Positions 6,417 through 40,266 of a stretch of 44,097 nt of DNA are shown piece after piece (within the stretch, counting starts at the first letter, position 1; each line of letters opens with the position of its first letter). The stretch comes from Thermoanaerobaculales bacterium (GTDB lineage: Bacteria; Acidobacteriota; Thermoanaerobaculia; Thermoanaerobaculales; Sulfomarinibacteraceae). A program made the translations under genes and the position numbers. The stretch is taken from NCBI GenBank assembly GCA_029938595.1, contig JAOZUP010000001.1:1774-45870 (forward strand), in the 5' to 3' direction. Below the pieces are notes generated by a model that was not told the DNA's origin, did not search any database, and worked only from the letters and a program-made list of their open reading frames with translations.

Positions 6417-6445
6417 GGATGAATTGTAGCGCGCACCGATGGTTG

Positions 6446-11161: not shown

Positions 11162-11177
11162 GCGCTCTGGAGGACAG

Positions 11178-18564: not shown

Positions 18565-20538
18565 TCACTCCGGGCTGTTCGGAATCAGATATCCGAGAGC
18601 ACGGAGTCGTTCGACCTCTTCATCGGTAAGCGACGAATCGCTTGGAACAGAGACGACAGCCTCGTCAACCATTCCGGTGGTTGTTGCGACAATCGACTGT
18701 TGGCGAAGCGAAGTGGCGATGTGCCGCCATTCCGGGTCCTCGATCAGGTTGTTGCTTTCCGTCGGATCGTTTTGGACATCGAACAACTGTTCGCCGCTTG
18801 CGATACGGGCCACCAGTGGTGAGTTGCCCTTTGGATGGAGATGACGTTTCAGCACGTAGTCTCGAGGAAACGACCAACGGGAAATGTATTTGATGTGCTC
18901 GGTACGCACATAGTGTGCACCTGTGTTTGAGCTCGTGCCAAAGGCCAGTGGTGAGTCTTCCTTCCGGTCTCCGCTGATGGTCGGTAAAAGGCTCCGCCCT
19001 CGGAACGTCTCCGGGGCCGGTACTCCGATTTCGTCGAGAATGGTCGGTGCGACGTCAATGAGTCGGGTCAGCTCGTTCACTCGAAGGCCTGCAAAGCGGT
19101 TGTCCCCTAGCTTTATGACAAGGGGGATACGGATTTCGTCCTCCTTGAGGAACAACCCGTGTCCAATCCAGATCTCGTGATCAAATAAGCTCTCGCCATG
19201 GTCAGAGGTGACGACAATTGTCGACTTCTCGTAAAGCCCCGAGTCTTGGAGGAACTCGAGCATTTCACCAATGGCTGCATCCACTCTCATGATTCCCTCG
19301 TCGTACGCCGCAATGGTGTCTTCGACGCACCGGAAACGATCCAAATCAAGGTAGTCGTGGTACCCGAGAGTCTTGAAAACCGACATCGGTGGGTAACGAG
19401 TTTCCTCCGGATTGATGAGCTGCCGTAGCCGGCCGGCAAATGGAGACTGTGTCCCGTACGGGCCGTGCACATCCATGATGTGCCAGAAGACAAACACCCG
19501 ATCAGCGGATGCGTCAGAGAGCCATTCCAAGAGACGCTGTTTTGTGATTCCGACCCCCCACCGCGGGGCCGGTCGCGGCGGCGCGGTGGCGTCGTAGTGA
19601 TCGAACCCCCGGTCGAATCCGAATCGACCCAGCCAAGGAGTGTCCACAAATCCGGCCGAAGTCCATCCGGCCTCCGAGGTTGCCTCGGCAATCGTCACCA
19701 ATTCACTCGGAATGTCCTTCTCTGCCGTGGTGCCATGGAAGAAGGGGTCCGTCGAGGTGAAAAGTGAGGCATGTGAAGGAATCGTCCAGGGCGATGGCGC
19801 AACCGTTTTGTTGAATACGACGCTGTCCTCAGCGAGTCGGATCAAGTTGGGAGTGGGGGCCATCCCCCCGTAAAGCTCCATTCGATCAGATCTGAGAGTG
19901 TCTACCGATATCAACAGGACCATCCCTGTTGGACGGATCGTCGATGAAATCTCGTACTTGATATGTGGATCTCCCCAGACCACCTGAGCGTTTTCGCACG
20001 ATCCGCTCTGACACTCAGTTCGCAGCACGAGTTGGGTCGATTGACTGGAGCAGGGATCGAGAGAAACCTCGCGATCACCCCAGCTTTGGGCTGTGCGATC
20101 AGAAACATTCGACAGCTTCTCGCGGAGCAATTCAACCTCGGCGCCACCCTGGCCAAGACATGTGATGTGAGCCACTATTCCGTCCCCCGGGTGTCCAGGA
20201 GCCGCAACAGTTGAAGCCAAACCGAGCAGAAGCCGATTTCCTGGCCCAGATGGTACTTTCTGAAAAACCAGTGCGGACTCGACAGCCTGACCAATCGACA
20301 ACCGGCGATCGAATCCTAATTGAATCCACCCGAGAGTGGCGTCGGGTTTCTCGTTACCATGCCGTTTCGCAGTGTGGAGGCTCGCCACCAGGTGGTATTC
20401 CTGCCGCGATGTTGTTGGTGCGATTTCTCGGGCGCTATCGCAACACACCGTCGCTGAAAAAAGCCCCGGGACCAATACGAGTCGGGCAAGACGGGCTGGA
20501 CTAATGCGAGCACGATTGAATAGAATCCTACGTGTCAT
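18565..20538 (-). CDS. Alkaline-phosphatase-superfamily (sulfatase-fold) protein, Thr-type, with N-terminal beta-rich module
   Basis: LLISVDTLRSD, SPWTIPSHASLFTS (Thr at the Cys/Ser formylglycine position, His at the Arg position) and VVTSDHGES. N-terminus has a hydrophobic signal, LVLVPGLFSATVCC. The tail is EEVERLRALGYLIPNSPE. Confidence 0.8.
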   Translation of the reverse strand: MTRRILFNRARISPARLARLVLVPGLFSATVCCDSAREIAPTTSRQEYHLVASLHTAKRHGNEKPDATLGWIQLGFDRRLSIGQAVESALVFQKVPSGPGNRLLLGLASTVAAPGHPGDGIVAHITCLGQGGAEVELLREKLSNVSDRTAQSWGDREVSLDPCSSQSTQLVLRTECQSGSCENAQVVWGDPHIKYEISSTIRPTGMVLLISVDTLRSDRMELYGGMAPTPNLIRLAEDSVVFNKTVAPSPWTIPSHASLFTSTDPFFHGTTAEKDIPSELVTIAEATSEAGWTSAGFVDTPWLGRFGFDRGFDHYDATAPPRPAPRWGVGITKQRLLEWLSDASADRVFVFWHIMDVHGPYGTQSPFAGRLRQLINPEETRYPPMSVFKTLGYHDYLDLDRFRCVEDTIAAYDEGIMRVDAAIGEMLEFLQDSGLYEKSTIVVTSDHGESLFDHEIWIGHGLFLKEDEIRIPLVIKLGDNRFAGLRVNELTRLIDVAPTILDEIGVPAPETFRGRSLLPTISGDRKEDSPLAFGTSSNTGAHYVRTEHIKYISRWSFPRDYVLKRHLHPKGNSPLVARIASGEQLFDVQNDPTESNNLIEDPEWRHIATSLRQQSIVATTTGMVDEAVVSVPSDSSLTDEEVERLRALGYLIPNSPE

Positions 20539-20597
20539 CAGTTGCCGATTGTAACAGCTGTAGCTGGGGAGATTTCAGTATGTTCTTCGAGACGGGA

Positions 20598-20617
20598 AAC
20601 GCCGAATCGTGAGTCAA
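20598..20617 (+). promoter_or_regulatory. Third copy of the 19-nt core of the 31-bp repeat, in sense orientation upstream of the GT2 gene
   Basis: aacgccgaatcgtgagtcaa. Its reverse complement ttgactcacgattcggcgtt matches 18446-18464 at 18 positions with a 1-nt insertion. Confidence 0.45.
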
Positions 20618-20628
20618 CACGCTTCTTC

Positions 20629-21783
20629 ATGATTCCTGTTAGTGACACCATGCGGCGTAGTAAAAGTCGGCCGGAATTTTCGGTCGTGATGCCGACGTAC
20701 AACCGGGCCGCCACCCTGAAGAAGATGCTCGGTGCCTGGGAGAGACAGACTCCGGGTGATCTCCCTTTCGAGGTCGTAGTGGTGGATGACGGGTCCCAGG
20801 ACGAGACGCCCGAAGTGATTGCCTGTTGGCAACCGTCGCGGTACTCGCTGGTAGGGCTGCGACAGGAAAACCAGGGACCGGCGATGGCGCGGAACTACGG
20901 GTTGGCGGCATCAATGGGGAAGTGGGTCCTCTTCACCGGTGATGACATCGAGCCGGCCCCCGACCTGTTGAAATGGCACATCGATTCCCACCGGCACCTG
21001 AATGACGATCGTTGGGCCGTACTGGGAAGAATTTCGTGGCCTCGAGAGCTCGAGGTCACATCGACCATGCGCCACGTCGACGGGGTCGGAGCGCAACAGT
21101 TCAGCTACCACTTCATGAAGGATGGCGACGAGTTCGATTATCGTCATTTCTACACCTCCAACGTTTCGGCATCGAGACGAATGCTCGACGAAGAGACTGC
21201 TGGCTTTAGCGGTGACTTCTCCGCGGCAGCGTTCGAGGATGCCGAGTACTCGTACCGACTCTGCCGCCGTGGGATGCGGATCGTTTACCAGGCGTCCGCG
21301 CGAGCTTGGCACCACCACCCCTATGATGCCCGCTCGTTCTTCAAGCGTCAGGTTTCGTGTGGGCGGATGGCCGCAGTTCTGATTCGCAAATGGCCGCAAA
21401 CACGGCGGCTCATCGGCGGCCACCAGATCGCGCGATCGCGCCTTCGGGAAAGGCTAATTTTTGGCGCCCACCGGCGGCGTTTGAGAGAGGTTGGGGAGTG
21501 TCTCGAAACGGTGGAGGATTGTGCGCTCGAGCTCGCGTCGGGGTTCGATGTGCCGGCTACGACCGTGGTCGATCCGTTTCTGCAGAAGCTCTTCCACTAC
21601 GGCTACCTCAAGGGTCTCGTGACGGCAAACAAGAGCGAGGGCGTGGCGAGGCGCCTGTGCGCCTTCTGGTTCACAAACCTAGTGGGCGATGGTTTTTTGA
21701 GCATTCGGCATGAGTTCGAAAAACGAGGCTCAAAAGCCGATGCCGAGAACCTGAACGGGCTTCTCGAATTAACTCGGCGTTAG
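20629..21783 (+). CDS. Family 2 glycosyltransferase with ~150-aa C-terminal extension
   Basis: EFSVVMPTYNRAATLKKML, VVVVDDGSQDET, VLFTGDDIEP. Start is uncertain: ATG 20629 or 20650. The track ORF begins at TTG 20542. Confidence 0.75.
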   Translation: MIPVSDTMRRSKSRPEFSVVMPTYNRAATLKKMLGAWERQTPGDLPFEVVVVDDGSQDETPEVIACWQPSRYSLVGLRQENQGPAMARNYGLAASMGKWVLFTGDDIEPAPDLLKWHIDSHRHLNDDRWAVLGRISWPRELEVTSTMRHVDGVGAQQFSYHFMKDGDEFDYRHFYTSNVSASRRMLDEETAGFSGDFSAAAFEDAEYSYRLCRRGMRIVYQASARAWHHHPYDARSFFKRQVSCGRMAAVLIRKWPQTRRLIGGHQIARSRLRERLIFGAHRRRLREVGECLETVEDCALELASGFDVPATTVVDPFLQKLFHYGYLKGLVTANKSEGVARRLCAFWFTNLVGDGFLSIRHEFEKRGSKADAENLNGLLELTRR

Positions 21784-22748
21784 CCCGCAGCGGCCAGGGT
21801 TGCGACGGCTGCTCCGTGGAAGGGGTGCGACGGGTCGATGATCGCGTCGTACGCCGGCGACGGCTGTTCAGAATTTCCGCGAAGCACAAGGAGTCGGTCG
21901 AGAATCCCGTCACAGCCGAAGCTCGGCATTGAGTTCCACGCCAGTTGGACGAGCTCGTCCAGGCCGGAGCCCTCTCCAAGGGAGGAGCCGAGCAGCCGAT
22001 ATGCGTGGCGGGCGACGACCCATTGGATCTCGAACCGCATCGGTCCGACCTCCGTCCCGGCACCCTCCTTGATCGTATTATCGGCGTGGACGCGGTACTT
22101 GACCAACGGTTCGGGAACCAGCCTGAGCCCTCCATGGTGGCATGCCGCCAGGATGAACTCCCAGTCATGAGCATAGCGCAGGGGTTGGAATCTTAGACCA
22201 TGCTCCTCGACCAGGGAACGGCGGAACACGAGGTTCGAAGTCGTTGAGACAAAGTTGGTCTCGAGCAACGCCAACGCGGGGTGCCCAAGGTCGGAGAGAT
22301 AGGGGCCGCCGGTCGGGGGCGGCCACGGCGGAAGGTTGTGCCAGCCCTCCTTGACCCCGAGCTCGTTTCCGTGGTCGTCGATGATCTGGATCCAGGAGGA
22401 GGCGAGTGCGGCTTCGGGGTGGGCGCGAAGCTCGTCAACGAGCCGGGGGAGGCGATTCGGTGGGAACGCGTCATCCGAGTTGAGTATGAACAGAAACTCG
22501 CCACGGGCGTTCTCCAAAGCGCGGTTGAGGGCTGCGTGGGCGCCGCGGTTCTCCTGCTCGAGGACGCGTACCCTGTCGTCGCGCGACACCAACCGAAGCC
22601 GCTCCCTCGAATCGTCTGTCGATCCGTCGTCGACGACGACGACCTCGATGCCATCGATCTCCGAAGCAAGAGCGCTCCCGATCGCCTCCTCGATGAAACA
22701 ACCGTGGTTGTACGAGGGCACGAGCACGCTGACGGTGGGTTGGGTCAT
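21780..22748 (-). CDS. Family 2 glycosyltransferase
   Basis: From ATG 22748: MTQPTVSVLVPSYNHGCFIEEAIGS, VVVVDDGSTDDS, LFILNSDDAF. An ATGA overlap (22745-22748) joins it to the upstream gene's stop. Confidence 0.8.
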   Translation of the reverse strand: MTQPTVSVLVPSYNHGCFIEEAIGSALASEIDGIEVVVVDDGSTDDSRERLRLVSRDDRVRVLEQENRGAHAALNRALENARGEFLFILNSDDAFPPNRLPRLVDELRAHPEAALASSWIQIIDDHGNELGVKEGWHNLPPWPPPTGGPYLSDLGHPALALLETNFVSTTSNLVFRRSLVEEHGLRFQPLRYAHDWEFILAACHHGGLRLVPEPLVKYRVHADNTIKEGAGTEVGPMRFEIQWVVARHAYRLLGSSLGEGSGLDELVQLAWNSMPSFGCDGILDRLLVLRGNSEQPSPAYDAIIDPSHPFHGAAVATLAAAG

Positions 22749-24607
22749 CTCTTCGGAAAGATAGCAGTTTCGTAGTCCGACACAAACCGCTCGGCTCCAA
22801 ACCTGGCGCTGACCTGGAAGCGTCCACGGTGTCCCTCGCGTCGCCGTCGATCGGGGTCCATGAGTTCCCGGATCCCCGAAACCAGGCCGTCGATATTTCC
22901 TGGCGTGTCGACAACCACGCCGCCGCCGTCCTCCAGCAGGAGAGGAATATCTCCGACGCCAGGTGCGACGCACGGGATAGCCCGTGCGAGACCGTCGAGG
23001 AGGAAGACCGGCAGGCCCTCGAAGGACGAGGTGAGCAGACAGATGTCTATCGCGTCGTAGAGATCGAGAACGTCGCCCCTCATCGGCAGCCGGGTGAGGT
23101 TCGGAGGGCCGTCCCTACGCAGCTCGTCATCCACCGCGGCATCGAGGGGGCCGCCGCCCACCAATAGGAAATGAACGCCGTCGTTCACCAGGTCTCTTGC
23201 GACCCGTATCACGTCGAGGGGTCTTTTCTGGGGGTGCATTCGGATGAAGGTACCGACTACGACCTTGTCTTGAGGGAGATCAAGCGCCTCGCGTCGTTCA
23301 TGTTTGAGCACGTCTCGGCGCTCAGCGGATTGTTCGACGGGGATATCGACGCCGTGGTGAATCGCGGTGATCTTGGCGGCTGGAACGGCCCGCTCATCGG
23401 CGAGCGCGTGGGCGATTCGGGTGTTGATGGCGATGTGAAGGTCGGTTGACTTCATCACGGTTGGACAGTAGTGCTCGATCCAGCCGCCGCTGTGGTTGTA
23501 GAGCTGGTTGACGATGCGGATCGACGGAAAGCGCCGTTTGATCGCATCGACGTGGTCGTAGAAACAGATGTTCCCGTTCCAGCACACGAGGCTCTCCACG
23601 CGCCAGCGACGGAGGAGATGGCGGAGGGCAGAGGGGATGGCCTCCGGCGGAAGCCAGTCACCGAGGGTGTAGACGTGGGAGGTCAGCTCGCGAAAAGTAT
23701 CCACCGTCTGTCCGAGGCTCGAGAGATGCGGGTCGGTGGTTACGACGAGCAGTCGATACCGGTCGCGAAGACCGTGGATGAGTGCAAGGAGGAGCTTCTC
23801 CGCGCCGCCGACCGCGAGGTAAGGGAGCAGGAAGAGGGCGGTTCGTGGCCCGTCCACTGCCGGGAGGTCTTGCAGAACCGCCTCCACGTCACGCACCGGG
23901 CTGCGGACGATGGAACCGGGTCTCACGCCGTGGCGCAACCTGTAGACGCCGGAGGCCGTCGAGAACGGTTCGGCAGAATCCACGCAGTTCGCAAGCCGAG
24001 CGGCGCTGCTGAGATGTGGGACCGCCCTTCCGGTGACGGCTTGCCGGTCGCGCCGATCGGCGTGAGGGAGCTTCACGAGAACGCTGGAGGCTTCGTCGAG
24101 CTCAGGGTCTCGTGCGATCCGGCCGGACGGACCGAATCGCCCCGGCGCGGGTTCAGCCCATCCGGCGACCGTCCATTCGAGGTCCTCGGCACAGGTTGCC
24201 ATCAGGAGGGACTCCAGGTGAGTGAAAGGCAGGCCGTCGAGTCCTTTTCCCGCCGAGAAAACAAATTCCGGGCTCGACCCTGTCTCCGACGTTGTGATCA
24301 CCGAGTGCTCGGTCTGTTGGTCGAGGAAGCTCGAGATCAGCTCGGCTGAAACACTCTGTCCGGCAGTGATGACGATCGCGGGGTGGGGGATGGCGACCGC
24401 CTCTGACGGTGTCGGTGTCGGCACTACACGGGGCGGGCTAACGTTCCCCAGGCGACCACGGAGGGAGTAGACCGCGAGCGAGAGCACCCGTCGAACTCGG
24501 CGGCCGAGTGCGCGCAGCGGCCGATTGTGCTCCCAGAAGAGCGCCTGAACGCGGTATCGAAACCCCTGGGACCGCAATTCAGTCGGCCCCGAGAAAGACC
24601 GCCGCAT
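22745..24607 (-). CDS. Two-domain protein: unassigned ~300-aa N-domain + GT4 glycosyltransferase
   Basis: GT4 part: LLPYLAVGGAEKLLLALIHGL ... FEGLPVFLLDGLARAIPCVAPGVGDI. N-domain contains LPFTHLESLLMATCAEDL. Start placed at ATG 24607 (MRRSFSGPTELR...), overlapping the upstream stop by 29 nt. Confidence 0.7.
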   Translation of the reverse strand: MRRSFSGPTELRSQGFRYRVQALFWEHNRPLRALGRRVRRVLSLAVYSLRGRLGNVSPPRVVPTPTPSEAVAIPHPAIVITAGQSVSAELISSFLDQQTEHSVITTSETGSSPEFVFSAGKGLDGLPFTHLESLLMATCAEDLEWTVAGWAEPAPGRFGPSGRIARDPELDEASSVLVKLPHADRRDRQAVTGRAVPHLSSAARLANCVDSAEPFSTASGVYRLRHGVRPGSIVRSPVRDVEAVLQDLPAVDGPRTALFLLPYLAVGGAEKLLLALIHGLRDRYRLLVVTTDPHLSSLGQTVDTFRELTSHVYTLGDWLPPEAIPSALRHLLRRWRVESLVCWNGNICFYDHVDAIKRRFPSIRIVNQLYNHSGGWIEHYCPTVMKSTDLHIAINTRIAHALADERAVPAAKITAIHHGVDIPVEQSAERRDVLKHERREALDLPQDKVVVGTFIRMHPQKRPLDVIRVARDLVNDGVHFLLVGGGPLDAAVDDELRRDGPPNLTRLPMRGDVLDLYDAIDICLLTSSFEGLPVFLLDGLARAIPCVAPGVGDIPLLLEDGGGVVVDTPGNIDGLVSGIRELMDPDRRRREGHRGRFQVSARFGAERFVSDYETAIFPKR

Positions 24608-26456: not shown

Positions 26457-26589
26457 CGTGGTGTGCCCACGATACACCAGGGCGGCGGTCGGCGAATAAA
26501 TCCTCAAGCCTCCAATGCGATCGATGTTCCTCGAGAAGTCGACTGGCCGCCAGAACAGTACCGGGAAACTTGGCGGCGGGCTCTGTAGA

Positions 26590-27570
26590 ATGCGCGTGAC
26601 GATGACAAGTTTTTCACCCGACGTCTCCGTGGTCGTGTGCACGCAGAACCGATCCGCTCTTCTGGGCCGGGTGTGTCGAGAAGCGCTCCAGCAAAAACTG
26701 TCCGGGCAACAGTGGGAGCTTGTGATCGTCGACAACTGCTCGACCGACGATACCCAGGATATCGCCCGGGCGATTGAGTCCGAAAATCCCGAGAACGTGT
26801 GCGTCATCCAGGAAACCGAGTTGGGTTTGTCGGCGGCCCGAAACGCGGGCGTTCGTTCGTCGCGGGGTGAGTATGTCGTTTTCCTGGATGACGACGCCTT
26901 CCCGGAGCCGGGTTGGTTACAGGCGATTGTCGGAGCACTTCAATCAGGAGGGATCCGGTGTGCTGGAGGCCCGGTCCAGCCGCTGTTCCAGGGCGAGCTG
27001 CCGCGCTGGTTTCTTGGCAGGTTCCTGCCGTATCTGTCGGTGTGGGATCTCGGTGACAAAGAGCGCGAGCTCACCTACGACGAGTATCCACGCGGGGCGA
27101 ACATCGGTTTTCGGAAGAACGCGCTCGAAGCCGCCGGTGGTTTCTGCACCGACCTCGGCCGAAAGGGAAACAACCTGCTGTCGTGCGAGGAGACCGAACT
27201 CTGTCTCCGAATCGAGAGATTGGGCGGACGAATCGTGTATGCGCCGGAGGCGCGGGTCCGCCATCTCATCAATATCGAACGCATCTCGCCAACGTGGCTG
27301 ATCGAGAGGTTCGAGGCACAGGGGAGGTCGGAGGCAATTATCAATTGGCGCCACGGTGGACTTCAGGCGCTGATCCAGGGGACACGAACCTTCTCAAATC
27401 GTTGGCGGGCGGCGGCGAGCGAAATCGACAACGGCGGCGACCTCTTTGTCCGTTGCCAGCGCCGTTCGTTCTTCGGCTACCTGAGAGGCAGTCTCCCAGC
27501 CCTCCTCACGGTTGATCGCTGTCGCTGGCCCAAGGGATCAAGACCCGCCCGGTGGGCGCCGTCGCGATAG
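26590..27570 (+). CDS. Family 2 glycosyltransferase
   Basis: DVSVVVCTQNRSALLGRVCREAL, LVIVDNCSTDDT, VVFLDDDAFPEPGW, CEETELCLRIERLGGRIVY. Start at ATG 26590 or 26602. Confidence 0.8.
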   Translation: MRVTMTSFSPDVSVVVCTQNRSALLGRVCREALQQKLSGQQWELVIVDNCSTDDTQDIARAIESENPENVCVIQETELGLSAARNAGVRSSRGEYVVFLDDDAFPEPGWLQAIVGALQSGGIRCAGGPVQPLFQGELPRWFLGRFLPYLSVWDLGDKERELTYDEYPRGANIGFRKNALEAAGGFCTDLGRKGNNLLSCEETELCLRIERLGGRIVYAPEARVRHLINIERISPTWLIERFEAQGRSEAIINWRHGGLQALIQGTRTFSNRWRAAASEIDNGGDLFVRCQRRSFFGYLRGSLPALLTVDRCRWPKGSRPARWAPSR

Positions 27571-27610
27571 CTCGCTGACGACCCGAAACGCTCACCGAGG
27601 AACCCACTGG

Positions 27611-31077: not shown

Positions 31078-31281
31078 CAGACGAATCTCCTTCGAAATCG
31101 AGGGTAACTCCCTCCACAAACGAGCCGACACTCACTGCCGGCCATTTAAACCGCCACGGAGTCCCAAACATCCTACCCTCATCCGTTACCTCCGGGCCTC
31201 GAACTCGTCTTATACTACAAGGGTTGGGAAAGCGTTCGGCTTGACCGATCCATAAAACCGCTAAGGGGAGGTACGACGCTC

Positions 31282-31941
31282 ATGACCAAGAAGCAACTAG
31301 TTGTCCTGGTGGGTGTGCTTTTGTTAGCAAGTCCGGTTGCCTTTGCGAACGACATGGCTGTCAATGATACGAACCCGATATCGGGATCGTGGGATCTGCA
31401 ATTGACCATGACAGGTGACAGCACTCCGGCTTATGTTGAGACGGACTCTCCGATTGCGGAGCCGGGAATTTCGATCGAATTCAAGCTGATGGTCACGGAT
31501 CTGGACATGGGCGGTTCCTCCGGTATGCGCAACCTCCGTGTTGTAAAGGGGCTGTCGACGTTTCCTGCGCCCGGTGCGGTTGGGATGGAACACATGGTCC
31601 TGTTCTTGAAGAGGCCATTTGATGGTTCTTCCAACTACCGGATTCGACTCATGACGGGCACCGATGCAGGTTTCTTTACCTCGTGCGGGGAGGGTTTCTT
31701 CGCGATACCGAATGTGGCCAAAACGGTCAGGATTGAGTGGGTGACGGGCACTGGGGCCTGGACCAACGATGCTCGATGCAGTCTCTTTATCAACGATGTA
31801 TTGGTTGGGGAACAAACCACCTCGAACTTCCAGGATTACAATGTTGACGCTGTTCGTTTCGGTATCTTCCAACCCACGGTTCCGGCGGAAGGCAGCGGGT
31901 CGTACCAAGTCGACGACGTCGTCCTGACTCGCCTCCCGTAG
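31282..31941 (+). CDS. Secreted hypothetical protein (beta-rich, lectin/LamG-like impression)
   Basis: Signal peptide MTKKQLVVLVGVLLLASPVAFA. AAGGGGAGG ribosome-binding site 8 nt upstream. Followed by a strong intrinsic terminator. No catalytic motif recognised. Confidence 0.6.
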   Translation: MTKKQLVVLVGVLLLASPVAFANDMAVNDTNPISGSWDLQLTMTGDSTPAYVETDSPIAEPGISIEFKLMVTDLDMGGSSGMRNLRVVKGLSTFPAPGAVGMEHMVLFLKRPFDGSSNYRIRLMTGTDAGFFTSCGEGFFAIPNVAKTVRIEWVTGTGAWTNDARCSLFINDVLVGEQTTSNFQDYNVDAVRFGIFQPTVPAEGSGSYQVDDVVLTRLP

Positions 31942-31994
31942 AGGTGTCAGAGCGGTTGCCTCGGTCTCTCTGACGCAATCGCAAGGTGAACGTG

Positions 31995-32030
31995 GTAGCC
32001 CGGAGATAGCTCCGGGCTACTGCTTTTTTT
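31995..32030 (+). terminator. Rho-independent terminator
   Basis: Perfect 11-bp stem gtagcccggag / ctccgggctac with loop atag, followed by tgcTTTTTTT. Confidence 0.85.
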
Positions 32031-32051
32031 CTCGTCGGTGAGATGACCGGG

Positions 32052-33902
32052 TTAGGGAGCGACCATCTGAGGGTTGATAGGGGCCGACGAAACGGTGGCT
32101 CTTTCAGGAAAGATTTCTGACTGAATCGTGATTCGGAACGCCGGAATCGCCCTCGGCGGGCTGTCCTTCGAGACGATGACGAGGGACACCATCTCCGAAT
32201 GGAGCCCGTTCAGGACATCCGGGCTTTGTCGCGGATGCGCTCGCATCTTGACGATCGTCGACGAGGCTGGGATGAGGTCGAACATTTGAACTCGGTCGTT
32301 TGGGTCGCGAGACGATTTGGGAACTCCCTTGAGGATCGTTTGACCATCCATCAGAAGTCGGAGAGACACCACCTGGCGTTCGCTAACAATTTTCGCGGAG
32401 GGTGGCCCATTCCCCAGGGTAATCCGCACCAATTGAAGTGGCTCGTCTGTGGTGTTTCGCAAAAGGACCCTTCCCAGAACACCAAACCTGGACTCGATCT
32501 CCCCTATGACGGCAGACTGAGCGCCTCCGTTCGAAAAGCGAAGTTCGGCCTCAATTACCGCGCCCGCTTTCAGAACGCGCTTCAGTGGCAGATACATTAT
32601 GTTCGAGCCCGTCGACAGGTCGATCAGGCTTCGGGTTCCGGTTTCCTTGAAGCTGAAGCGCCGCGTGTGACCCGGGAGGCCGGCGTTGGTCACAAAAACT
32701 CCAATTGGTTCCGATTCGATTCCGAGGTAGACCTCCTTCGCGTGATCGAGGGCGATCGTCCGATCACGAATTCCAATTTTGGCGTCTTCCGGCCAGCCGC
32801 TTCTCGAGGCCAATTGGATGCGTGTTTGGCGTTCGCCGGCCAGCAGCGATCGGTACTCGCTGGCGGCCATCTTGTTGCCGAGGGCGCTCAGATGGCCCTT
32901 TGGTGCTCGATAGATGCCGGACATCTTCCAGCTCAGTCGAGGTGTTGACAGGCGGAAGAAATGGTCCTTATAAGCAGGCAGGAACTCTCTAAGCGAAAAG
33001 GATTCTTCGTCGTTACACCCGGCGATGAAGTTCACAGACTGGTTGATGAGATCTTCGAGGATCAGCGTGTAGATTTGATCGAGCTCTCCCGGGCCTCTGA
33101 AATAGTAAAAGGGGTTGAGATCCAGCTGCCGGTGCCGTGAGATCACCGATCTAAGGAGGGTAGGCGGTTTCATGTCGAACCGAAGATAACGCCACGGCGT
33201 AATAAAGCGGGAATACAGTGCACATGCCTGTTCTCGGTCCTTCCCCAACACCGGAACGAACTCGAGTTTTCCTTCACCATCCAGGACATACCTCGCATGA
33301 ACTGGGCCGTAAGCGCCATAGAGCTGGACGAATGTCGCGTCCCTCTGCCGGTGAAATGAAAAGAGGTGAAAAATAGTGTAGTCGAGGTCGTACGCGGCGC
33401 CGAGTTCCTGCCAGAGCAGATATGCCTGTTGTAACCCGTAGCCCCCTACACCGAAGTTGATGACCTCCACGTCCGTCATTGACGCCGATTCGAACTCGCG
33501 TTGGAGAAGATAGGGGAAATCTCCTCCCGGTTGAGTTTCTGCGCCGCGAGCGAACGAACACCCGAAAACACCTATTCGGATAGTGTCTGGTGCCTTTTTT
33601 GAGGGGTGCAGCTGATATGAGCTCGCTGGACGATTCTCTGGCGAGTGAGCTGTCCCGAGCTGAAGGAGGGCTTCATCAGAGAGTGGAGAGAAATCGCGTG
33701 CCAAAAACTCCGGCTCGTGTGTGGTCTCGAAAAATTGGAGGCTGGTACGGTAACTCAAAAACCGTCCGTAAAGGACGGCAGTGATTGCCGCGACTGCAAT
33801 GAATAGAAGCAGGAATTTCGGGGCGAATCTTCTCATCCTTGAACCGGTGCCGGTCATCAGTGGCCCTTTCCCTGGGAATATAGCTTGTGTGGAGAGAATC
33901 AA
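32052..33902 (-). CDS. Membrane-anchored hypothetical protein, possible SGNH-like N-terminal domain
   Basis: 616-aa ORF with TM anchor FAPKFLLLFIAVAAITAVLY. IRIGVFGCSFARG is GDS(L)-block-I-like, with Cys in place of Asp. INFGVGGYG is block-II-like. Start is ambiguous among three ATGs. Domain call is speculative. Confidence 0.5.
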   Translation of the reverse strand: MILSTQAIFPGKGPLMTGTGSRMRRFAPKFLLLFIAVAAITAVLYGRFLSYRTSLQFFETTHEPEFLARDFSPLSDEALLQLGTAHSPENRPASSYQLHPSKKAPDTIRIGVFGCSFARGAETQPGGDFPYLLQREFESASMTDVEVINFGVGGYGLQQAYLLWQELGAAYDLDYTIFHLFSFHRQRDATFVQLYGAYGPVHARYVLDGEGKLEFVPVLGKDREQACALYSRFITPWRYLRFDMKPPTLLRSVISRHRQLDLNPFYYFRGPGELDQIYTLILEDLINQSVNFIAGCNDEESFSLREFLPAYKDHFFRLSTPRLSWKMSGIYRAPKGHLSALGNKMAASEYRSLLAGERQTRIQLASRSGWPEDAKIGIRDRTIALDHAKEVYLGIESEPIGVFVTNAGLPGHTRRFSFKETGTRSLIDLSTGSNIMYLPLKRVLKAGAVIEAELRFSNGGAQSAVIGEIESRFGVLGRVLLRNTTDEPLQLVRITLGNGPPSAKIVSERQVVSLRLLMDGQTILKGVPKSSRDPNDRVQMFDLIPASSTIVKMRAHPRQSPDVLNGLHSEMVSLVIVSKDSPPRAIPAFRITIQSEIFPERATVSSAPINPQMVAP

Positions 33903-33955
33903 CGGTGACGCCGCATGAAAACCGAAATGTCTTCATCGCTCGGAATAGAGGATGA

Positions 33956-35371
33956 TCAATCAAGGTACCCGAGAGCCTTGAGCCTCTCCTCCTCCTCAGC
34001 ATTGAGTGAATTCGCCGCCGTAGTCGGCGTCGTGGCGAGGATGGCGGCATGTTGTCGGAGGGCTTTGATTCGCTCCTCCATCATCACCGTTAAACGGTGA
34101 ACGACATCTGGGTGCCGGTCACTGACATCATGGAGCTCGGCAGAGTCGCTGGAGGGCTGGAAAAGGGCTGTCATGCCCGACTGTCGATCTCGAACAAGCT
34201 TCCAGTTCCCGGTGCGAAGACCCCACGCAGGCTTCCAGAGCTTGTCCTGGAAGAGGACCGAATCACGACCGTCGAAACCAAACCCGCCGGTATCGGATTT
34301 CCGGCGAGGATCTGTTGGCGATTGGTCTCCGCCCGCCATCGCCAACACCATTGTGTGTATATCCATAAGGGTGACGAGTGAGCCGATATGCTCACCGGCG
34401 TTTTCGTGTTTCGGCAGTTTGACCAGAAGAGGGACCGCCACTGACTCTTCGTACACCTGCGAGTGGATGAACTTGCCGTGCTCCCGGAACTCCTCTCCGT
34501 GATCTGATGTCAGGATGATCACGGCACCCTCGTACAGACCCCTCTCCCTGAGGCCAGCAAAGAGGGCCTCGAGGTCGTGATCGAGGTGGCGACATCCTCG
34601 GCGGTACAGGTCGTGGATCAACTCCGTCTCCGCACTCGAAACCTCTCGCCGTTCTTTGTCCGCAGCGAGGAGGTAGCTGGTCGCACAGTTGCCCTCTCGG
34701 TCGCAGAAACGATCTTCTACAGTCTCCGCCAGGTCCTGTCGATATGCTTCGGGCGAATAGTAGGGGAGGTTGGTGCCGCTCTGTTTGACGAAATCCGAGT
34801 GCGCATCATAGAGGTGCAGAAAAAGGAAGAGCGGTCTGTCATCGTCGGCGCGGCCGTCGACAATCTCGAACGTGCGACGGATCGCGCGGTCGGCATAGGT
34901 GGCTCGATGGGGTATGGTCTCGTAGCTTTCAAAGCCCCGGTCGAAACCGAACTCTGGCTTGAGCCAATCGGAGGTGTAGATCCCTGCCGTCGCGTACCCC
35001 TTTTGCCGGAGTTCCTCAGCCACGGTCCCGGTACTCGGTCCGAGAACGTCCTTGCGGCCTTCGACGCCATGTTCCACATGGTGAAGGCCTGTGAACATGG
35101 ACATATGTGCGGGAAGCGTGAAGGGGATTGTCGTGTAGGCGTTGTCAAAGACGACGGCATCGCGCGCAAACCCGGCGAGTGCCAGGGCATTTTCGGCGCC
35201 GTGAGCGGCCACGGCGTCTCGTCTGACGGTGTCCAGCGAAACCAGAAAGATGTTGGGCGGAACAAACTCGGCGGCCGGCGGTCGACCGCAGCCGGAAAAG
35301 ACCGCCAAAAACAGCCCTGCTACGGCAAGGGTTGCGGCTCGGCCTGACGATCCATTGCTGCGCAGGGTCAT
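33956..35371 (-). CDS. Alkaline-phosphatase-superfamily (sulfatase-fold) lipoprotein, Thr-type
   Basis: Lipoprotein signal LAVAGLFLAVFSGC. Motifs IFLVSLDTVRRD, IPFTLPAHMSMFTG and ILTSDHGEEF. Tail is EEEERLKALGYLD. Confidence 0.8.
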   Translation of the reverse strand: MTLRSNGSSGRAATLAVAGLFLAVFSGCGRPPAAEFVPPNIFLVSLDTVRRDAVAAHGAENALALAGFARDAVVFDNAYTTIPFTLPAHMSMFTGLHHVEHGVEGRKDVLGPSTGTVAEELRQKGYATAGIYTSDWLKPEFGFDRGFESYETIPHRATYADRAIRRTFEIVDGRADDDRPLFLFLHLYDAHSDFVKQSGTNLPYYSPEAYRQDLAETVEDRFCDREGNCATSYLLAADKERREVSSAETELIHDLYRRGCRHLDHDLEALFAGLRERGLYEGAVIILTSDHGEEFREHGKFIHSQVYEESVAVPLLVKLPKHENAGEHIGSLVTLMDIHTMVLAMAGGDQSPTDPRRKSDTGGFGFDGRDSVLFQDKLWKPAWGLRTGNWKLVRDRQSGMTALFQPSSDSAELHDVSDRHPDVVHRLTVMMEERIKALRQHAAILATTPTTAANSLNAEEEERLKALGYLD

Positions 35372-35503
35372 TCTTTCTTTTCTCCCGGTCGCGACAGAAT
35401 CCAGAGCAAAAGGCCGCTCACCGATCCGTATGAAAAAGCCGCGATTGCGCCGGTTGGTCGAAGGCGCGGCGACGAGCCTGCTTAATGTATCATCGAACCT
35501 CTG

Positions 35504-36952
35504 GTGGAGGGTTGGTTGGAGTTGTCCTGGGCGTGTGGGCCGATCGGCAGGAACCTGCTGAGAATCTCCTCAGCGGCGATTCTCGTAGCAGGAGCGGCTG
35601 CCTGTGCGCCTGAACCCCCGCCCGCAGAGCACACCGTGGCTCGTCATGCCATTCTCATCGTCATCGACACGTTGAGGGCGGATCGAGTCGGGTACATGGG
35701 GGCGGACCGGGCGACCTCGCCTCGTGTGGATCAACTTGCCCGTGATGGAACGTCCTTCTTGCGTGCGTACGCCAACTCACCGTGGACAGTCCCCTCGACG
35801 GCCACGATCTTGACCTCTCTCTATCCGTCTGAGCATGGGGCAGAGGTTATCGGAGATGTCCGCAATCTCGCCGAAATGCCTCCTCGGCAAATCCATGCCG
35901 CCGTTCGATCTGTCGGAGAGATTCTCCAAGAATCGAGGTTCAGGTGCGGGTTGTTCTCGGCGAATCCATATCTTTTCGGACGCTTTAAAGACGGGTATGA
36001 CACCGCATTCGTCGACCGGCAATCTGCCACCACAATCACCGATCTGGCGCTCGAGTACATAGCATCGGTCCAAGGTGATCGATTTTTTGTCCACATCCAG
36101 TACATGGACCTGCACCCTCCGATCGAGCCGCCGGCACCCTATTTCAATTTGTTTCCGACGCCAGAGGCCGGCCCTCGGGGCGAGCGACACAAGGAGTGGG
36201 CGTTCAGTCGCGGTCGAGATCTCAGCTCTGACGAATTCGTGGAGTTTCGAGACAACAAGCTGGCTTTGTACGACGGAGCTCTGCGTTACATCGACGACGA
36301 AATCGGTCGTCTGATGGATACTCTCGAATCCCTGGGAATCCTCGAGGACACGCTGATTGTGGTGACCTCCGATCACGGAGAGGAGTTTTGGGATCACGCC
36401 GAGCTGGAAGCATTTCTGGGAGGCGACCCACGAGGGTATTACGGCATCGGCCACGGGCACACCCTGTTTCAGGAGCTGCTGCGAGTTCCCCTGCTGTTCT
36501 TTGGTCCGGGCGCTTCGCCCGGGCTCACGGTCGACGACCCGGTCTCATTGCTCGATCTCGCCCCGACGATGCTCGGTCTTCTGGATGTTCGGATCCCGGA
36601 ACAGATGCGGGGAAAAAACCTTCAATCGGTCAATGGGGGAGGGATAATGAAAACTCCGATTTCGACCCCCATCTATGCCGAGTCGCCCGCTTATGGGCCC
36701 AACGCGTGGTGTCTGATCGAGGGAGGTCGGAAATTCATAGCCCGTGATGACGGAGTCAGGCTTCTGTACGATCTGGTTTCGGATCCGCGAGAAACGCATG
36801 ATCTAGCGTCCGACAATCCGGAGCTCGGGCAGGAAATGCAGGATCGACTCGACAGCTTTCGATCGACTTTGGCCCCCGTCGGGCCCACGGACTCCGTGAA
36901 CATCGACGGGAGAACCGAGGAGCAGCTCCGCGCTCTCGGATATGTTGAGTGA
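35504..36952 (+). CDS. Alkaline-phosphatase-superfamily (sulfatase-fold) lipoprotein, Thr-type
   Basis: Lipobox-like ILVAGAAAC. Motifs ILIVIDTLRADR, SPWTVPSTATILTS and VVTSDHGEEF. Tail is TEEQLRALGYVE. GTG start at 35504 is uncertain. Confidence 0.8.
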   Translation: MEGWLELSWACGPIGRNLLRISSAAILVAGAAACAPEPPPAEHTVARHAILIVIDTLRADRVGYMGADRATSPRVDQLARDGTSFLRAYANSPWTVPSTATILTSLYPSEHGAEVIGDVRNLAEMPPRQIHAAVRSVGEILQESRFRCGLFSANPYLFGRFKDGYDTAFVDRQSATTITDLALEYIASVQGDRFFVHIQYMDLHPPIEPPAPYFNLFPTPEAGPRGERHKEWAFSRGRDLSSDEFVEFRDNKLALYDGALRYIDDEIGRLMDTLESLGILEDTLIVVTSDHGEEFWDHAELEAFLGGDPRGYYGIGHGHTLFQELLRVPLLFFGPGASPGLTVDDPVSLLDLAPTMLGLLDVRIPEQMRGKNLQSVNGGGIMKTPISTPIYAESPAYGPNAWCLIEGGRKFIARDDGVRLLYDLVSDPRETHDLASDNPELGQEMQDRLDSFRSTLAPVGPTDSVNIDGRTEEQLRALGYVE

Positions 36953-37015
36953 GGATTCGCCGGCAACTCCCGGACGTCCCCGTCGAGACCGTCTATCGTC
37001 GCGTTTGAACGGTCG

Positions 37016-37231
37016 CTACTCCTCGGCTCCGTCGGAATCGGCCTCGGTCTCTCCTGAGGCCTCCGTCGGCATTTCAGACTCGCCGGACTCGAAGTCCATA
37101 GTGGCGATCGGCTCCTCCTCTGTCGCAGTGGGTGCTTGCTTGGCAGGGGGTTCTTGCGGCTGGGTCGGCCCGGCACACCCGATGACGGAAAGTATGGAGA
37201 TGACAAAAACGACGGCCAGCAGTTGCTTCAT
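37016..37231 (-). CDS. Small acidic lipoprotein (71 aa)
   Basis: MKQLLAVVFVISILSVIGC is a signal plus lipobox, followed by a Pro/Glu/Asp-rich tail. GGAGGG lies 8-13 nt upstream of the ATG. Competing overlapping ORFs lack such features. Confidence 0.55.
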   Translation of the reverse strand: MKQLLAVVFVISILSVIGCAGPTQPQEPPAKQAPTATEEEPIATMDFESGESEMPTEASGETEADSDGAEE

Positions 37232-37515
37232 CTTGGAGCCCTCCTCGAGCTCGATTGATGACGCAAGGCTATCCCAGCCAGGGGCAATCGTCTATCAGAT
37301 GCGAGATTGGTGCGGGGAAACCGGCGATTCGGAATAGCGAAGCCTCCACGGGAGGGTGGGACGCCGGTTCAAAGTTCATATTTGAGACATTTCATCCGGA
37401 CTCGTCCGACCCACTACAGATGGACCCTCCCGAGTTGGTCGTTGGGCGGTGGAGATTGAGGTATTATTCCGCGTCAATCGAAGCGAGGGGCGGGGGAAAA
37501 CCGGTGAGACAACGA

Positions 37516-40266
37516 ATGTGCAGAAAGAGTAGGAGGCTGGCCGAGCTGGTAGCTGGTGGGGCTGTCGCGATCATTGTTGTCGTGTCCGGCGGCTGCACTG
37601 GTGGCGACGCGATCACGCTTGCCGAGGGTCAGAGCTCGCTCCGCTTCGTAGATCTGCTGTCCGTCGCGGAGGTGAGCAGTCCCCTGCAGGGGGTAGAGGC
37701 GATCCATGCCATCGGCGATCTCGAAAGCGTCAAAACCACGCGAACTGTGGAAGCGAGGATGGTGACGGAGGGGGAAGGCGGCTGCCGAGCCGAGGAGCTG
37801 GCGGTCGTTTGTGACGGCGACGACATCAAGGCCTTCTGGGATGTTCCTGTGACCCTCAACAGCTATTCGCGAATCCGGCTGACTGTACGCACCGACAACG
37901 CCGAGTGCTTCGAGATCTCGGTCCAGAACGGCAAGCAGGAGGAGATCTTCCTGGCTCTCGACGGGAACCGCCAGGGCGAGTGGCAGGAGTTGTCGACCCT
38001 CGTAGTGGCGGCTCCTGTGAGCCAGAGCGGGCCACGAGTCCACATCCAATCGCAACCCGGTCGTTCGGGCTGCGATCTCGAGGTGGCGGACGTCCGCGGC
38101 GAGGAGCTCGACATGAGCCCCGACGCCGAACTCGGCTTCCTCAAGGGCCAAAACACGCTTCCGGGTTCCGATCCGGAACTGGGGATCGCCAAGAAGGGCA
38201 TCATGCTGCCGACGGCGGGAAACGTTGGCGCCTTGGCGCCCTTCGACGACAACTTCACGATCATTGAGGCGCTCTTGGCGCCGGCGCCGACCGAGATCAC
38301 CTACCGGGTTGCCGTCCCGGAGGATTCCCGGCTGCTGTTCTCGTACGGCCCTTATCGCGCTTCGATGTCCGTGGATGCGGTTGGTTTTGAGGTTCGCGTC
38401 AAGCGGCGTTGGCGGGCCGCGGAGACCGTCTGGTCCGAGGTCGTCAGGGTCGATGAGAAGAGCTGGTACTGGCAGGAGGCCACGGTCGACCTCAGCCGTT
38501 ACTGGGGCATGACGATCGACCTGACGTTTCGCAGCTTCGCGCCGAACGGCGGTCGTGCCCAGGCGGTGTGGGGGACGCCAACCCTCGTTCTGCCGCGCCA
38601 TCCCGAGGACCCTCCGAATATCATCTTGATAGCGATCGACACGCTGAGGGCGGACCACCTGTCGTGTTACGGGCATCCCGGATCGGTCTCACCGAACGTC
38701 GATGCGTTGGCGGCCGACGGTGTTCGGTTTGCGGACGCCTTCGCTCAGAGCAACTGGACCCGGCCGTCGTTTGCGTCGATCTTCAGCGGTCTGACAGTCG
38801 AAGCGCACGGCCTGGTCGGTATGTTGGATGAGCTTGCGCCGTCCGTGACCACGCTGGCCGAGATCCTGAGGGGGGCCGGCTGGTTGACCCAAGGGATCGC
38901 CTATAAGCCGGCACTGGCCGGCCGGGGCTTCGAGCAGGGCTTCGAATCGTACTTCAACATTCCCAAGGCGACCCACTTGGCCCAAGAGAACCTGAACAAG
39001 GCGATCGCGTTCATTAACCGGCACGGTGACCAGCGGTTCTTTCTCTTTCTCCACTTCAACGACCCCCACCTCCCCTACACCCACCCGGTGCCGTTCTTCA
39101 GCGCCGAGTCGAAGGCGGACATTAAGTCCTTCGGTATGAGGCGGCCCGTCTGGATCTACCCGGACCTGCGGAACTGTTCGTGGTGCGGCTTACCGGGAAA
39201 CCGGGCACCCCGTTTCGACCGCATGAGTCGCCGGCTCTACGTGGAGGAGGTGCGCTACCTGGACGACCGCATCGGAGCGCTGATCGAGGAGCTCAAGTGG
39301 CGCGGCCTCTACAAGGATACGATCATCGTCTTCGTCTCGGACCATGGAGAGACGCTCTGGGACCACTACGACCAGTTCGGCCACGGCGGTAAGAACCACC
39401 ACGACGAGCTCATCCACGTCCCGATGATCATCAAACCCCATCGGGGCTGGGGAGCGGCGAAGGCCGGAGTCGTTGACACCCAGGTGCGGGCCTTCGACCT
39501 CATGCCGACAGTGCTCGAGCTCGCCGGAGTCGATGCCGGCGGCATCGATCTCGAGGCCGAGAGCCTGGCGCCGATGCTCCGGCAGCCTCTTGGCGACGGG
39601 CCGGCACGCCTGGTTGTCAGCACCAACGAGTGGGCGTCAGCCGTGAGGCTCTGGCCATGGAAGTACATCCGGCCCCTGCCGCCGCACAGCGGCCCGGAGC
39701 AGCTCTTCGATCTCGAGGATGATCCCGGTGAGAACCGAGATGTCGCGGCCCATCACCCCGAGATCGTGCGAAAGCTACGGCTCGAGGCGGCCGAACATGC
39801 TCTCATGCACCACGGCGGGCGTTTCGTCGTCGTGATCGAGGACGAAGGGGAGCATGCCGTGCGCGTGATGTGGAGCACCGATGCCGTCCTTGGCCCGGCG
39901 GGCCACATAGGGCTGCCTCCGGCCGGGACCGGCGGCAGAGAAAGACTGCGATTCATAGCCCCTGACTTCGCGTTCGCCGGTCCGGTCGGGACGGATCCGC
40001 TGGCTTTGGTCGCTGGATTCCAGGTTGCCGAGGATGGTTCGTTGCGGGTGTCCGTCGACGGTGGGCCCGAGGTGATAGTCGATCAGTTTCCGATCTACAC
40101 CGCTGGGAACCTCGGTCGGATCGTCGATCGCGGCGAGCCCGGTGTCTTCGCATTCACCTCGCCCGCCAGGTCTCACCGGAGTCGGAGCGGATTCACGCCC
40201 AGCGAGACCCGGGTCGATGCCCGGCAGCTCGAGGCGCTCCGCGCGCTCGGCTACATCGATGATTGA
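37516..40266 (+). CDS. Large lipoprotein: unassigned ~365-aa N-region + Thr-type sulfatase-fold domain
   Basis: From ATG 37516: MCRKSRRLAELVAGGAVAIIVVVSGGC (lipoprotein signal). Motifs IILIAIDTLRADH, SNWTRPSFASIFSG and FVSDHGETLW. Tail is QLEALRALGYIDD. The track start at 37255 adds an unlikely leader. Confidence 0.75.
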   Translation: MCRKSRRLAELVAGGAVAIIVVVSGGCTGGDAITLAEGQSSLRFVDLLSVAEVSSPLQGVEAIHAIGDLESVKTTRTVEARMVTEGEGGCRAEELAVVCDGDDIKAFWDVPVTLNSYSRIRLTVRTDNAECFEISVQNGKQEEIFLALDGNRQGEWQELSTLVVAAPVSQSGPRVHIQSQPGRSGCDLEVADVRGEELDMSPDAELGFLKGQNTLPGSDPELGIAKKGIMLPTAGNVGALAPFDDNFTIIEALLAPAPTEITYRVAVPEDSRLLFSYGPYRASMSVDAVGFEVRVKRRWRAAETVWSEVVRVDEKSWYWQEATVDLSRYWGMTIDLTFRSFAPNGGRAQAVWGTPTLVLPRHPEDPPNIILIAIDTLRADHLSCYGHPGSVSPNVDALAADGVRFADAFAQSNWTRPSFASIFSGLTVEAHGLVGMLDELAPSVTTLAEILRGAGWLTQGIAYKPALAGRGFEQGFESYFNIPKATHLAQENLNKAIAFINRHGDQRFFLFLHFNDPHLPYTHPVPFFSAESKADIKSFGMRRPVWIYPDLRNCSWCGLPGNRAPRFDRMSRRLYVEEVRYLDDRIGALIEELKWRGLYKDTIIVFVSDHGETLWDHYDQFGHGGKNHHDELIHVPMIIKPHRGWGAAKAGVVDTQVRAFDLMPTVLELAGVDAGGIDLEAESLAPMLRQPLGDGPARLVVSTNEWASAVRLWPWKYIRPLPPHSGPEQLFDLEDDPGENRDVAAHHPEIVRKLRLEAAEHALMHHGGRFVVVIEDEGEHAVRVMWSTDAVLGPAGHIGLPPAGTGGRERLRFIAPDFAFAGPVGTDPLALVAGFQVAEDGSLRVSVDGGPEVIVDQFPIYTAGNLGRIVDRGEPGVFAFTSPARSHRSRSGFTPSETRVDARQLEALRALGYIDD

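Follow-up and report, generated by a model that had tools for sequence, protein, structure and literature searches.

Sulfatases of the formylglycine (S1) type carry the signature (C/S)-x-(P/A)-x-R, with an oxidisable Cys or Ser at its head. Barbeyron et al. noted that 30 of the 59 seed sequences of the Pfam family PF00884 carry Thr; because Thr cannot yield formylglycine, such proteins are not to be called sulfatases, and the example given was the TxNxE (LtaS-like) group (PMC5066984). Beyond this general SulfAtlas remark, the literature that we found on Thr-type sulfatase-like enzymes consists of work on EptA, LtaS, YejM, and NPP, and it held nothing on the S1-like clade with a W-T-x-P motif that is the subject here. 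We analyzed four of its members, P1 (18565-20538, minus strand), P2 (33956-35371, minus strand), P3 (35504-36952, plus strand), and P4 (37516-40266, plus strand), all encoded in a 44,097-nucleotide stretch of contig JAOZUP010000001.1 from a Thermoanaerobaculales bacterium (the window). An earlier note on this DNA had suggested that they represent an undescribed activity. The Thr principle had already been published (PMC5066984), but the S1-like WTxP clade does appear to be undescribed; in its soluble lipoprotein form, with a His in place of the catalytic Lys and a distinctive end motif, it appears uncharacterised. We consider it likely, though far from certain, that P1-P4 act in the cell envelope as metallo-phosphoesterases or phosphotransferases with a Thr nucleophile, in which an S1 fold has moved from sulfate to phosphoryl chemistry, and that they are not sulfatases.

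Thr occupies the formylglycine position in four sulfatase-fold paralogs

All four open reading frames (ORFs) are present at these coordinates, and the HMMER check proposed in the earlier note placed every one of them above the gathering score of PF00884 (25 bits), with 95.6-155.7 bits and E-values of 4e-27 to 2e-45. They share only 27-33% pairwise identity over the catalytic domain and are therefore old paralogs. The translations contain the motifs VDTLRSD, WTIPSH, and TSDHGE in P1 (657 aa); LDTVRRD, FTLPAH, and TSDHGE in P2 (471 aa); IDTLRAD, WTVPST, and TSDHGE in P3 (482 aa); and IDTLRAD, WTRPSF, and VSDHGE in P4 (916 aa). The motifs claimed earlier are thus real, but the consensus needs two corrections: P2 reads LDT where [IV]DT had been given, and P4 reads VSDHGE where [ST]SDHGE had been given.

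The note had also claimed that Thr replaces the Cys or Ser of the signature. Indeed, in phmmer and profile alignments against solved S1 sulfatases, the Thr of all four proteins falls in the formylglycine column and the residue four positions further on falls on the signature Arg. phmmer aligned WT-V-P-S-T of P3 to S-S-T-P-A-R of the Bacteroides S1 sulfatase 7oz8, and a family profile built from 34 diverse members and aligned to PDB structures gave the same Thr register with 9fo1, 7oz8, and 6ust. The Arg position is occupied by His in P1 and P2, Thr in P3, and Phe in P4. The signature with its oxidisable residue is absent: Thr stands there in all four proteins and in 98 of 99 relatives.

The rest of the S1 active site is altered as well. 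In the profile alignment, Thr replaces the latter Asp of the D-D pair that binds metal in sulfatases. The columns of the G-K-x-H-L-G motif (Lys123 and His125 of ARSA) hold non-conserved residues and Pro, and the column of the S1 catalytic Lys, in the G-K-G...Y-E-G-G-x-R-V-P segment (the equivalent of ARSA Lys302), holds His317 in P3 numbering, which is 100% conserved. What has been kept is the His of the P-H-x-P strand (His204 in P3) and the Asp-His of SDHG; a family-specific Asp lies two residues before the strand His. Judged from these alignments, the sulfate-binding Arg, Lys-x-His, and Lys of S1 are gone from the Thr family.

The best sequence matches are S1 sulfatases and phosphonate monoester hydrolases (PMHs), with profile E-values from 1e-78 to 1e-49: 9fo1 (S1_16), 7oz8 (BT1918, S1_46), 6ust, and the PMH 2vqr. 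The family has in common with them a two-domain architecture including the C-terminal subdomain, the first-strand Asp, Pro at nucleophile +2, the His of the P-H-x-P strand, and an Asp-(His/Asn)-Gly motif. Unlike S1, it has the Thr nucleophile, the Thr in the D-D pair, the lost cationic residues, the extra Asp, and an LxxLGY end, and it has no need of a maturase. Among the 36 larger ORFs of the window that we scanned (32 of them of at least 200 aa), there is neither FGE (PF03781) nor a radical-SAM maturase, in agreement with the earlier statement that no FGE or anSME gene is encoded here. None of P1-P4 reached the cut-off of a curated NCBIfam model; the nearest, arylsulfatase (PRK13759), PehA, and choline sulfatase, gave 64.8-174 bits where 433-900 are required.

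The predicted fold agrees with these matches. An AlphaFold2 model of P3 built with 52 orthologs has a mean pLDDT of 88, and its first 50 Foldseek matches in the PDB comprise only S1 sulfatases and PMHs (TM 0.62-0.68, 17-22% identity); LtaS, EptA, and NPP are absent from these 50. The scaffold of P3 is therefore of the S1 sulfatase type, including the C-terminal subdomain. Thus the comparison drawn earlier, which was limited to NPP, EptA, and LtaS, missed the closest relatives by both fold and sequence. Searches of the PDB with the whole proteins, the family profile, and the nucleophile segment found no solved structure of a clade member.

The catalytic residues map onto those of EptA

As a phosphotransferase reference we used E. 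coli K-12 EptA, comparing it with the family by hmmsearch with the family profile and by global hhalign. The hhalign probability is 98.5%, and hmmsearch yielded the same residue mapping. In P3 numbering, Asp55 corresponds to the Glu of GETSR in EptA, Thr95 to the nucleophile Thr of G-T-A-T, His204 to the His of G-S-H-G-P, Asp290-His291 to the Asp-His of SDHGE, and His317 to the His of Y-L-H-G. We take His204 and His317 to be at the positions of His395 and His478 of MCR-1. In sequence alignment, then, the family has both the EptA-type arrangement of Thr, acidic ligand, and Asp-His around one metal and the two additional active-site His residues, each of them 99-100% conserved. The earlier claim that the metal site is retained is borne out for one predicted set of ligands (Asp, Thr, Asp-His), which appears complete. 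So too is the proposal of a phosphoryl-transfer-type catalytic set, which maps residue for residue onto EptA and goes with the apparent loss of the sulfate-binding S1 residues. The alignments indicate a catalytic set of the EptA/LtaS type within a sulfatase fold.

The features shared with EptA/MCR-1 and LtaS are the acidic ligand, the Thr, the His after the central strand, the Asp-His, and a His that follows 13-14 residues later (27 in P3, which has an insertion). Unlike EptA and LtaS, to which similarity is low (hmmsearch domain scores of 14 and 30 bits), the family has Asp rather than Glu as its first ligand, and the window proteins are lipoproteins that keep the sulfatase-type C-terminal subdomain. 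The EptA, LtaS, and CptA models of NCBIfam give P1-P4 only 15-33 bits against cut-offs of about 400-1250, and all four proteins have a signal/lipobox segment only, without the N-terminal polytopic membrane domain of the EptA type.

NPP is another Thr-type enzyme that P1-P4 resemble. PF01663 (NPP) scores 41-51 bits in all four (cut-off 23), as a weaker match that overlaps PF00884. The NPP structure 2gsn has its Thr nucleophile in a T-x-P-x-H...TG..P..HG segment that is closely like that of P1 and P2. The overall match is weak, however (E about 0.005 on the nucleophile segment), and neither the D-x-x-x-H spacing of NPP nor its distant third His is reproduced in the Thr family. A second metal site could be made up of Asp202-x-His204 and His317, although their spacing is not that of NPP. 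We considered an NPP-type neighbor as a guide to such a site and dropped it (local hhalign probability of 27%).

Conservation across phyla and within paralog groups

Conservation was measured over 99 members of the family, drawn from about 80 genomes in many phyla. The Asp at position 55 is 99% conserved, Thr95 99% (98 of 99, with one Cys), Asp202 89% (with a further 7% Glu), His204 99%, Asp290 100%, His291 99%, and His317 100%. Thr in 98 of 99 members across phyla is not a matter of chance. No pocket Arg or Lys is conserved across the 99. The earlier note had named incomplete, inactive enzymes as an outcome that would overturn its proposal; such strong conservation, across phyla and across paralogs only about 30% identical, argues against pseudoenzymes.

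The Thr nucleophile is invariant within the orthologous groups of P1, P3, and P4, and each group has further fixed residues of its own: His256, Asp299, and four Cys of the N-terminal domain in the P1 group; Thr99 (mostly) and Asn154 in the P3 group; and Phe419 and Lys464 in the P4 group. Apart from the Cys, these paralog-specific positions lie beside the nucleophile and in the column that replaces the sulfatase K-x-H. Because the fixed residues differ from group to group, four specificities fit better than redundancy, and each copy probably has a different group as its target.

Domain organization and predicted export of P1-P4

P1 begins with a lipoprotein signal (TVCC, 20440-20451), followed by about 200 N-terminal aa with the four conserved Cys and then by the Thr-type sulfatase-fold catalytic domain. 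Its nucleophile Thr252 (19783-19785) lies in WTIPSH, and HIMDVH is at 19465-19482, SDHGE at 19192-19206, the GHG with His460 at 19156-19164, and the tail LRALGYLIPNSPE at 18568-18606. P2 and P3 consist of the catalytic domain only. In P2, the lipoprotein signal FSGC is at 35288-35299, the nucleophile Thr85 of FTLPAH at 35117-35119, HLYDAH at 34799-34816, SDHGE at 34493-34507, His303 in IHS at 34460-34468, and the tail LKALGYLD at 33959-33982. The corresponding elements of P3 are the signal AAAC (35594-35605), Thr95 of WTVPST (35786-35788), DLH with Asp202 and His204 (36092-36115), SDHGE (36368-36382), the GHG with His317 (36449-36457), and the tail LRALGYVE (36926-36949).

P4 is the largest of the four. 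In its model (pLDDT of 84), the catalytic domain (about aa 365-765) is preceded by two beta-sandwich domains (about aa 40-200 and 245-358) and followed on the C-terminal side by another beta-sandwich (about aa 769-881) and a tail predicted to be disordered. The lipoprotein signal SGGC is at 37585-37596, the nucleophile Thr415 of WTRPSF at 38758-38760, NDPH at 39046-39069, SDHGE at 39337-39351, the GHG with His623 at 39379-39387, and the tail LRALGYIDD at 40237-40263. The frame is open from a TTG at 37255, 87 codons upstream of the Met of the lipoprotein signal (37255-37515), and gene calls on near-identical metagenome contigs give 916 or 1002 aa for P4, 471 aa for P2, and 478 aa for P3. A Pfam scan of the extra N- and C-terminal domains of P1 and P4 found no match.

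Lipobox-type lipoprotein signals are thus present in all four proteins, and therefore the periplasmic or surface location proposed earlier is plausible. The conserved Cys pairs in the N-terminal domain of P1 also fit an extracytoplasmic location. Signals are common in the family. About 88% of the 216 homologs whose start Met is annotated carry one at the N-terminus: it resembles a lipobox in 113, and 78 have some other hydrophobic N-terminus, which leaves 25 with none.

A very large clade with a recurrent C-terminal motif

A search with P3 among 90%-identity clusters returned more than 7,266 matches at E < 1e-10, and the only names on them are "sulfatase", "arylsulfatase A-like enzyme", and "choline-sulfatase". 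Among the best 120 of these matches, W-T-x-P is present in 105 and a C-terminal LxxLGY in 105. With one genome per species, we found at least 571 loci, all in metagenome-assembled genomes; the clade belongs almost entirely to uncultured bacteria. The phyla include Acidobacteriota (the closest, 46-51%), Planctomycetota, Myxococcota, Gemmatimonadota, Eisenbacteria, Krumholzibacteriota, Desulfobacterota, Spirochaetota, and others. The family profile matched 295,892 of 1.84 billion representatives at E <= 1e-3, a number that includes genuine sulfatases; Thr-type domains dominate the best 150 of these, many of them in tandem.

Besides tandem Thr domains, the fusions include C-terminal TPR arrays and an N-terminal PF03706 domain of 12 transmembrane (TM) segments joined to the Thr domain. 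Eight such PF03706 proteins (P0201, P0203, P0211, P0216, P0222, P0229, P0234, and P0237; e.g. L089:6279-9389) have about 960-1040 aa and 10-13 TM segments, a membrane-plus-catalytic plan like that of EptA and LtaS. We take PF03706 to be the LPG-synthase transmembrane region, a lipid-handling domain, and by analogy the fusion hints at lipid-linked substrates for this subgroup. A few clade proteins pair a Thr-type with a Cys-type (CxPxR) domain, and the large multi-domain profile matches P0267, P0268, P0276, P0287, and P0311 include a domain with a canonical CxPSR motif of the formylglycine type.

About 85% of the family, P1-P4 among them, have L-x-x-L-G-Y-[ILV]-[DE] behind an acidic stretch at the C-terminus, 1-7 residues before the stop. 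In P4 this tail is predicted to be disordered. The same tail occurs on NPP-type (PF01663) products encoded beside family members and otherwise barely alignable with them (hhalign 27%); further examples of the tail are at L052:7472-10201(-), L052:2864-4153(-), and L080:12959-14593(-). We rejected a C-terminal sorting signal as the sole reading of the motif because it is internal in the tandem-domain and TPR-fusion relatives, where it closes each catalytic module. One idea is that LxxLGY is a docking element, perhaps for TPR partners. As a separate observation, an APS kinase (PF01583) encoded at L040:14972-15580(-), about 5 kb from a family member, has an extra C-terminal tail in the LxxLGY style, SEEEEEKIRQRLRDLGYI; this may be chance, since about one such C-terminal match is expected in some 3,000 ORFs.

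The glycan locus and the neighborhoods of relatives

The earlier description of the setting as a glycan island holds: the window has a Wzm/Wzt ABC transporter, glycosyltransferases, a YfhO-like protein, and a methyltransferase. P1 lies within a glycan assembly block (10325-30517) with Wzm (10325-11161), Wzt (11103-11969), and GT2/GT4 genes. In the whole window there are at least 10 GT2/GT4 genes, some with products of 700-970 aa and more than one glycosyltransferase domain, and a methyltransferase gene. Directly upstream of P1, side by side, are genes for a 924-aa protein that matches YfhO weakly and has about 12 TM segments (13017-15791), likely a GT-C-type periplasmic glycosyltransferase, and for an 840-aa right-handed beta-helix protein (15919-18441). 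P2 is adjoined by a small secreted protein and by a 616-aa SGNH-like protein (32052-33902, minus strand) with one N-terminal TM segment and the motif IRIGVFGCSF...(VI)NFGVGGYG. The gene for the latter is kept beside P2 in the related contigs L084-L086, and its product may be a co-acting envelope enzyme, perhaps one that modifies glycan acyl groups. A Pfam scan of the neighbors at 32052-33902, 31282-31941, and 5286-6494 found no match.

Downstream of P4, on the minus strand, a module at 40282-42253 encodes a four-TM LiaF-like protein, a zf-HC2 anti-sigma factor (40905-41651), and an extracytoplasmic function (ECF) sigma factor (41648-42253). An unrelated 9.3-Mb genome has a sigma/anti-sigma pair (L087:14901-16715) within a cluster of five Thr-type paralogs. 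We found no significant similarity between the window and L087 in the ECF-side membrane proteins or in the SGNH-like protein, and a shared ECF module was discarded as an explanation because the accompanying proteins are non-homologous. The ECF pairs may still place Thr-type enzymes under envelope-stress control.

Parts of the locus are retained in relatives. A block of a 219-aa gene, a 601-aa gene, P2, and P3, with the adjacent glycosyltransferase genes, is syntenic in a contig that carries an 88%-identical P3 ortholog, and near-identical contigs also have P4 and the ECF pair. The distant ortholog P0024 lies among GT2, methyltransferase, PMT_2, and epimerase genes, and P0140 has PMT_2 and GDSL genes beside it, along with four more paralogs and a gene pair for an ECF sigma and anti-sigma factor. 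Two of three P4-related loci also encode, near family members, a membrane protein of about 840 aa that contains a Spermine_synth domain (L087:10792-13317(-) and L089:11416-13935(-)).

At the level of the family, guilt by association fails, because a Pfam census of 111 flanking genes from about 40 genomes found no conserved partner. The commonest flanking families, with at most four occurrences each, are NPP-type, GT1/GT4, methyltransferases, PMT_2, FG-GAP, and TPR; occasional neighbors include a sulfotransferase and an APS kinase. The window scan found no pho-regulon genes nearby. The earlier proposal of a glycopolymer substrate is weakened by these results, drawing as it does on this locus and a few relatives. 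The link to glycans is real for this lineage, but it is not a rule for the family.

Discussion

The mechanism that we propose for P1-P4 begins with a divalent metal, which would have as its ligands the Asp of the first strand, the Thr, and the SDHG Asp-His and would activate the Thr hydroxyl. Thr would then attack a phosphate ester to give a covalent phospho-Thr intermediate, while His204 and His317 (in P3) would protonate the leaving group and hold either the phosphoryl group or a second metal; the intermediate would be resolved by water or by the hydroxyl of an acceptor. Because the cationic residues suited to sulfate or dianionic phosphate have been lost, we infer that the substrate is mono-anionic, most likely a phosphodiester, either a phospho-substituent or a phospho-linkage. 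This step draws on general knowledge of NPP, EptA, and LtaS as against alkaline phosphatase and the sulfatases. The likely target in this locus would be the glycan of the neighboring ABC-transporter pathway or another envelope glycolipid.

Several points weigh against this interpretation. The placement of His204, His317, and Asp202 and the geometry of the metal site come from alignment, and the replacement of the second metal-site Asp of S1 by Thr bears on the identity and the number of the metals bound. Known Thr-type transferases reach their lipid donors through a polytopic membrane domain, which P1-P4 lack. The conserved Lys464 next to the active site of P4 also fits a more highly charged substrate. 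The neighborhoods of the family are heterogeneous, so that a glycan target may hold for this locus alone or be mistaken, and our literature search found no characterised member of the clade.

Two other readings keep phosphoryl chemistry and change its purpose. P1-P4 might serve general phosphate scavenging or nucleotide degradation, as mono- or diesterases of the PafA/NPP kind that lie in a glycan locus by chance. The PF01663 scores above the gathering threshold in all four, the NPP-type genes among the neighbors of a family with no conserved partner, and the export of most members would suit this. Yet the conserved Arg/Lys pair of phosphomonoesterases is absent, and there are no pho-regulon genes near. 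Moreover, the paralog types with extra beta-sandwich domains are each kept as an orthologous group, and the P2-P3-P4 block beside glycosyltransferase genes is syntenic in related organisms; we therefore regard scavenging as unlikely. Alternatively, the proteins could be strict headgroup transferases of the EptA/LtaS/OpgB type, moving phosphoethanolamine or phosphoglycerol from phospholipid to glycan with a separate membrane partner and not acting as hydrolases. They have the same catalytic set as EptA, a lipid anchor that holds them at the membrane surface, relatives fused to the 12-TM PF03706 domain, and large membrane proteins nearby (YfhO-like here, PMT_2 and Spermine_synth-type in relatives). 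With a membrane domain in none of P1-P4, no conserved partner, and EptA, LtaS, and CptA scores far below cut-off, we find this reading quite improbable, a little less credible than scavenging.

The remaining two readings dispense with phosphoryl transfer altogether. If P1-P4 were catalytically inactive binding proteins derived from sulfatases, the loss of the formylglycine signature and of several S1 catalytic residues would be explained, and the extra beta-sandwich domains could serve binding; but conservation of the nucleophile and of every other metal or active-site residue that remains is 89-100%, across phyla and between paralogs about 30% identical. Selection for catalysis leaves such a pattern, and it makes inactivity very hard to credit. 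True sulfatases that use Thr in place of formylglycine would account for the S1 sulfatases as closest relatives in sequence and structure, for the occasional sulfotransferase and APS kinase neighbors, and for the multi-domain relatives that pair Thr-type with Cys-type domains. To our knowledge, no sulfatase with a nucleophilic Thr has been described, and the sulfate-binding Arg, Lys, His, and Lys are not conserved. The SulfAtlas authors exclude Thr-bearing PF00884 proteins (PMC5066984), and we give this reading very little weight.

We therefore favor metallo-phosphoesterases or phosphotransferases of the envelope. A bolder version of this reading, which we put forward only tentatively and consider doubtful as a whole, is that a distinct and very large family arose from formylglycine sulfatases through a nucleophile swap and a rebuilt anion pocket. 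Its members would be soluble lipoproteins without a membrane domain that carry out an undescribed phosphodiester hydrolysis or transfer on exported glycans or glycolipids, with LxxLGY as a docking element.

The database label "sulfatase" is probably wrong for this clade. Counts of "sulfatase" genes are widely used to infer the degradation of sulfated polysaccharides by bacteria, and a clade of more than 7,000 clusters at 90% identity without sulfatase chemistry would mean that these counts run too high in several phyla of soil and sediment; if this is true, much of what is counted as "sulfatase" in Acidobacteriota, Planctomycetota, Myxococcota, and related genomes is something else. For enzymology, the family would offer a natural switch of nucleophile, from formylglycine to Thr, with a rebuilt anion pocket in an unchanged fold, useful for studies of how sulfatases and phosphotransferases interconvert in the alkaline phosphatase superfamily. 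For envelope biology, it points to putative soluble, lipid-anchored enzymes that may process phospho-groups in the glycan loci of uncultured diderm bacteria.

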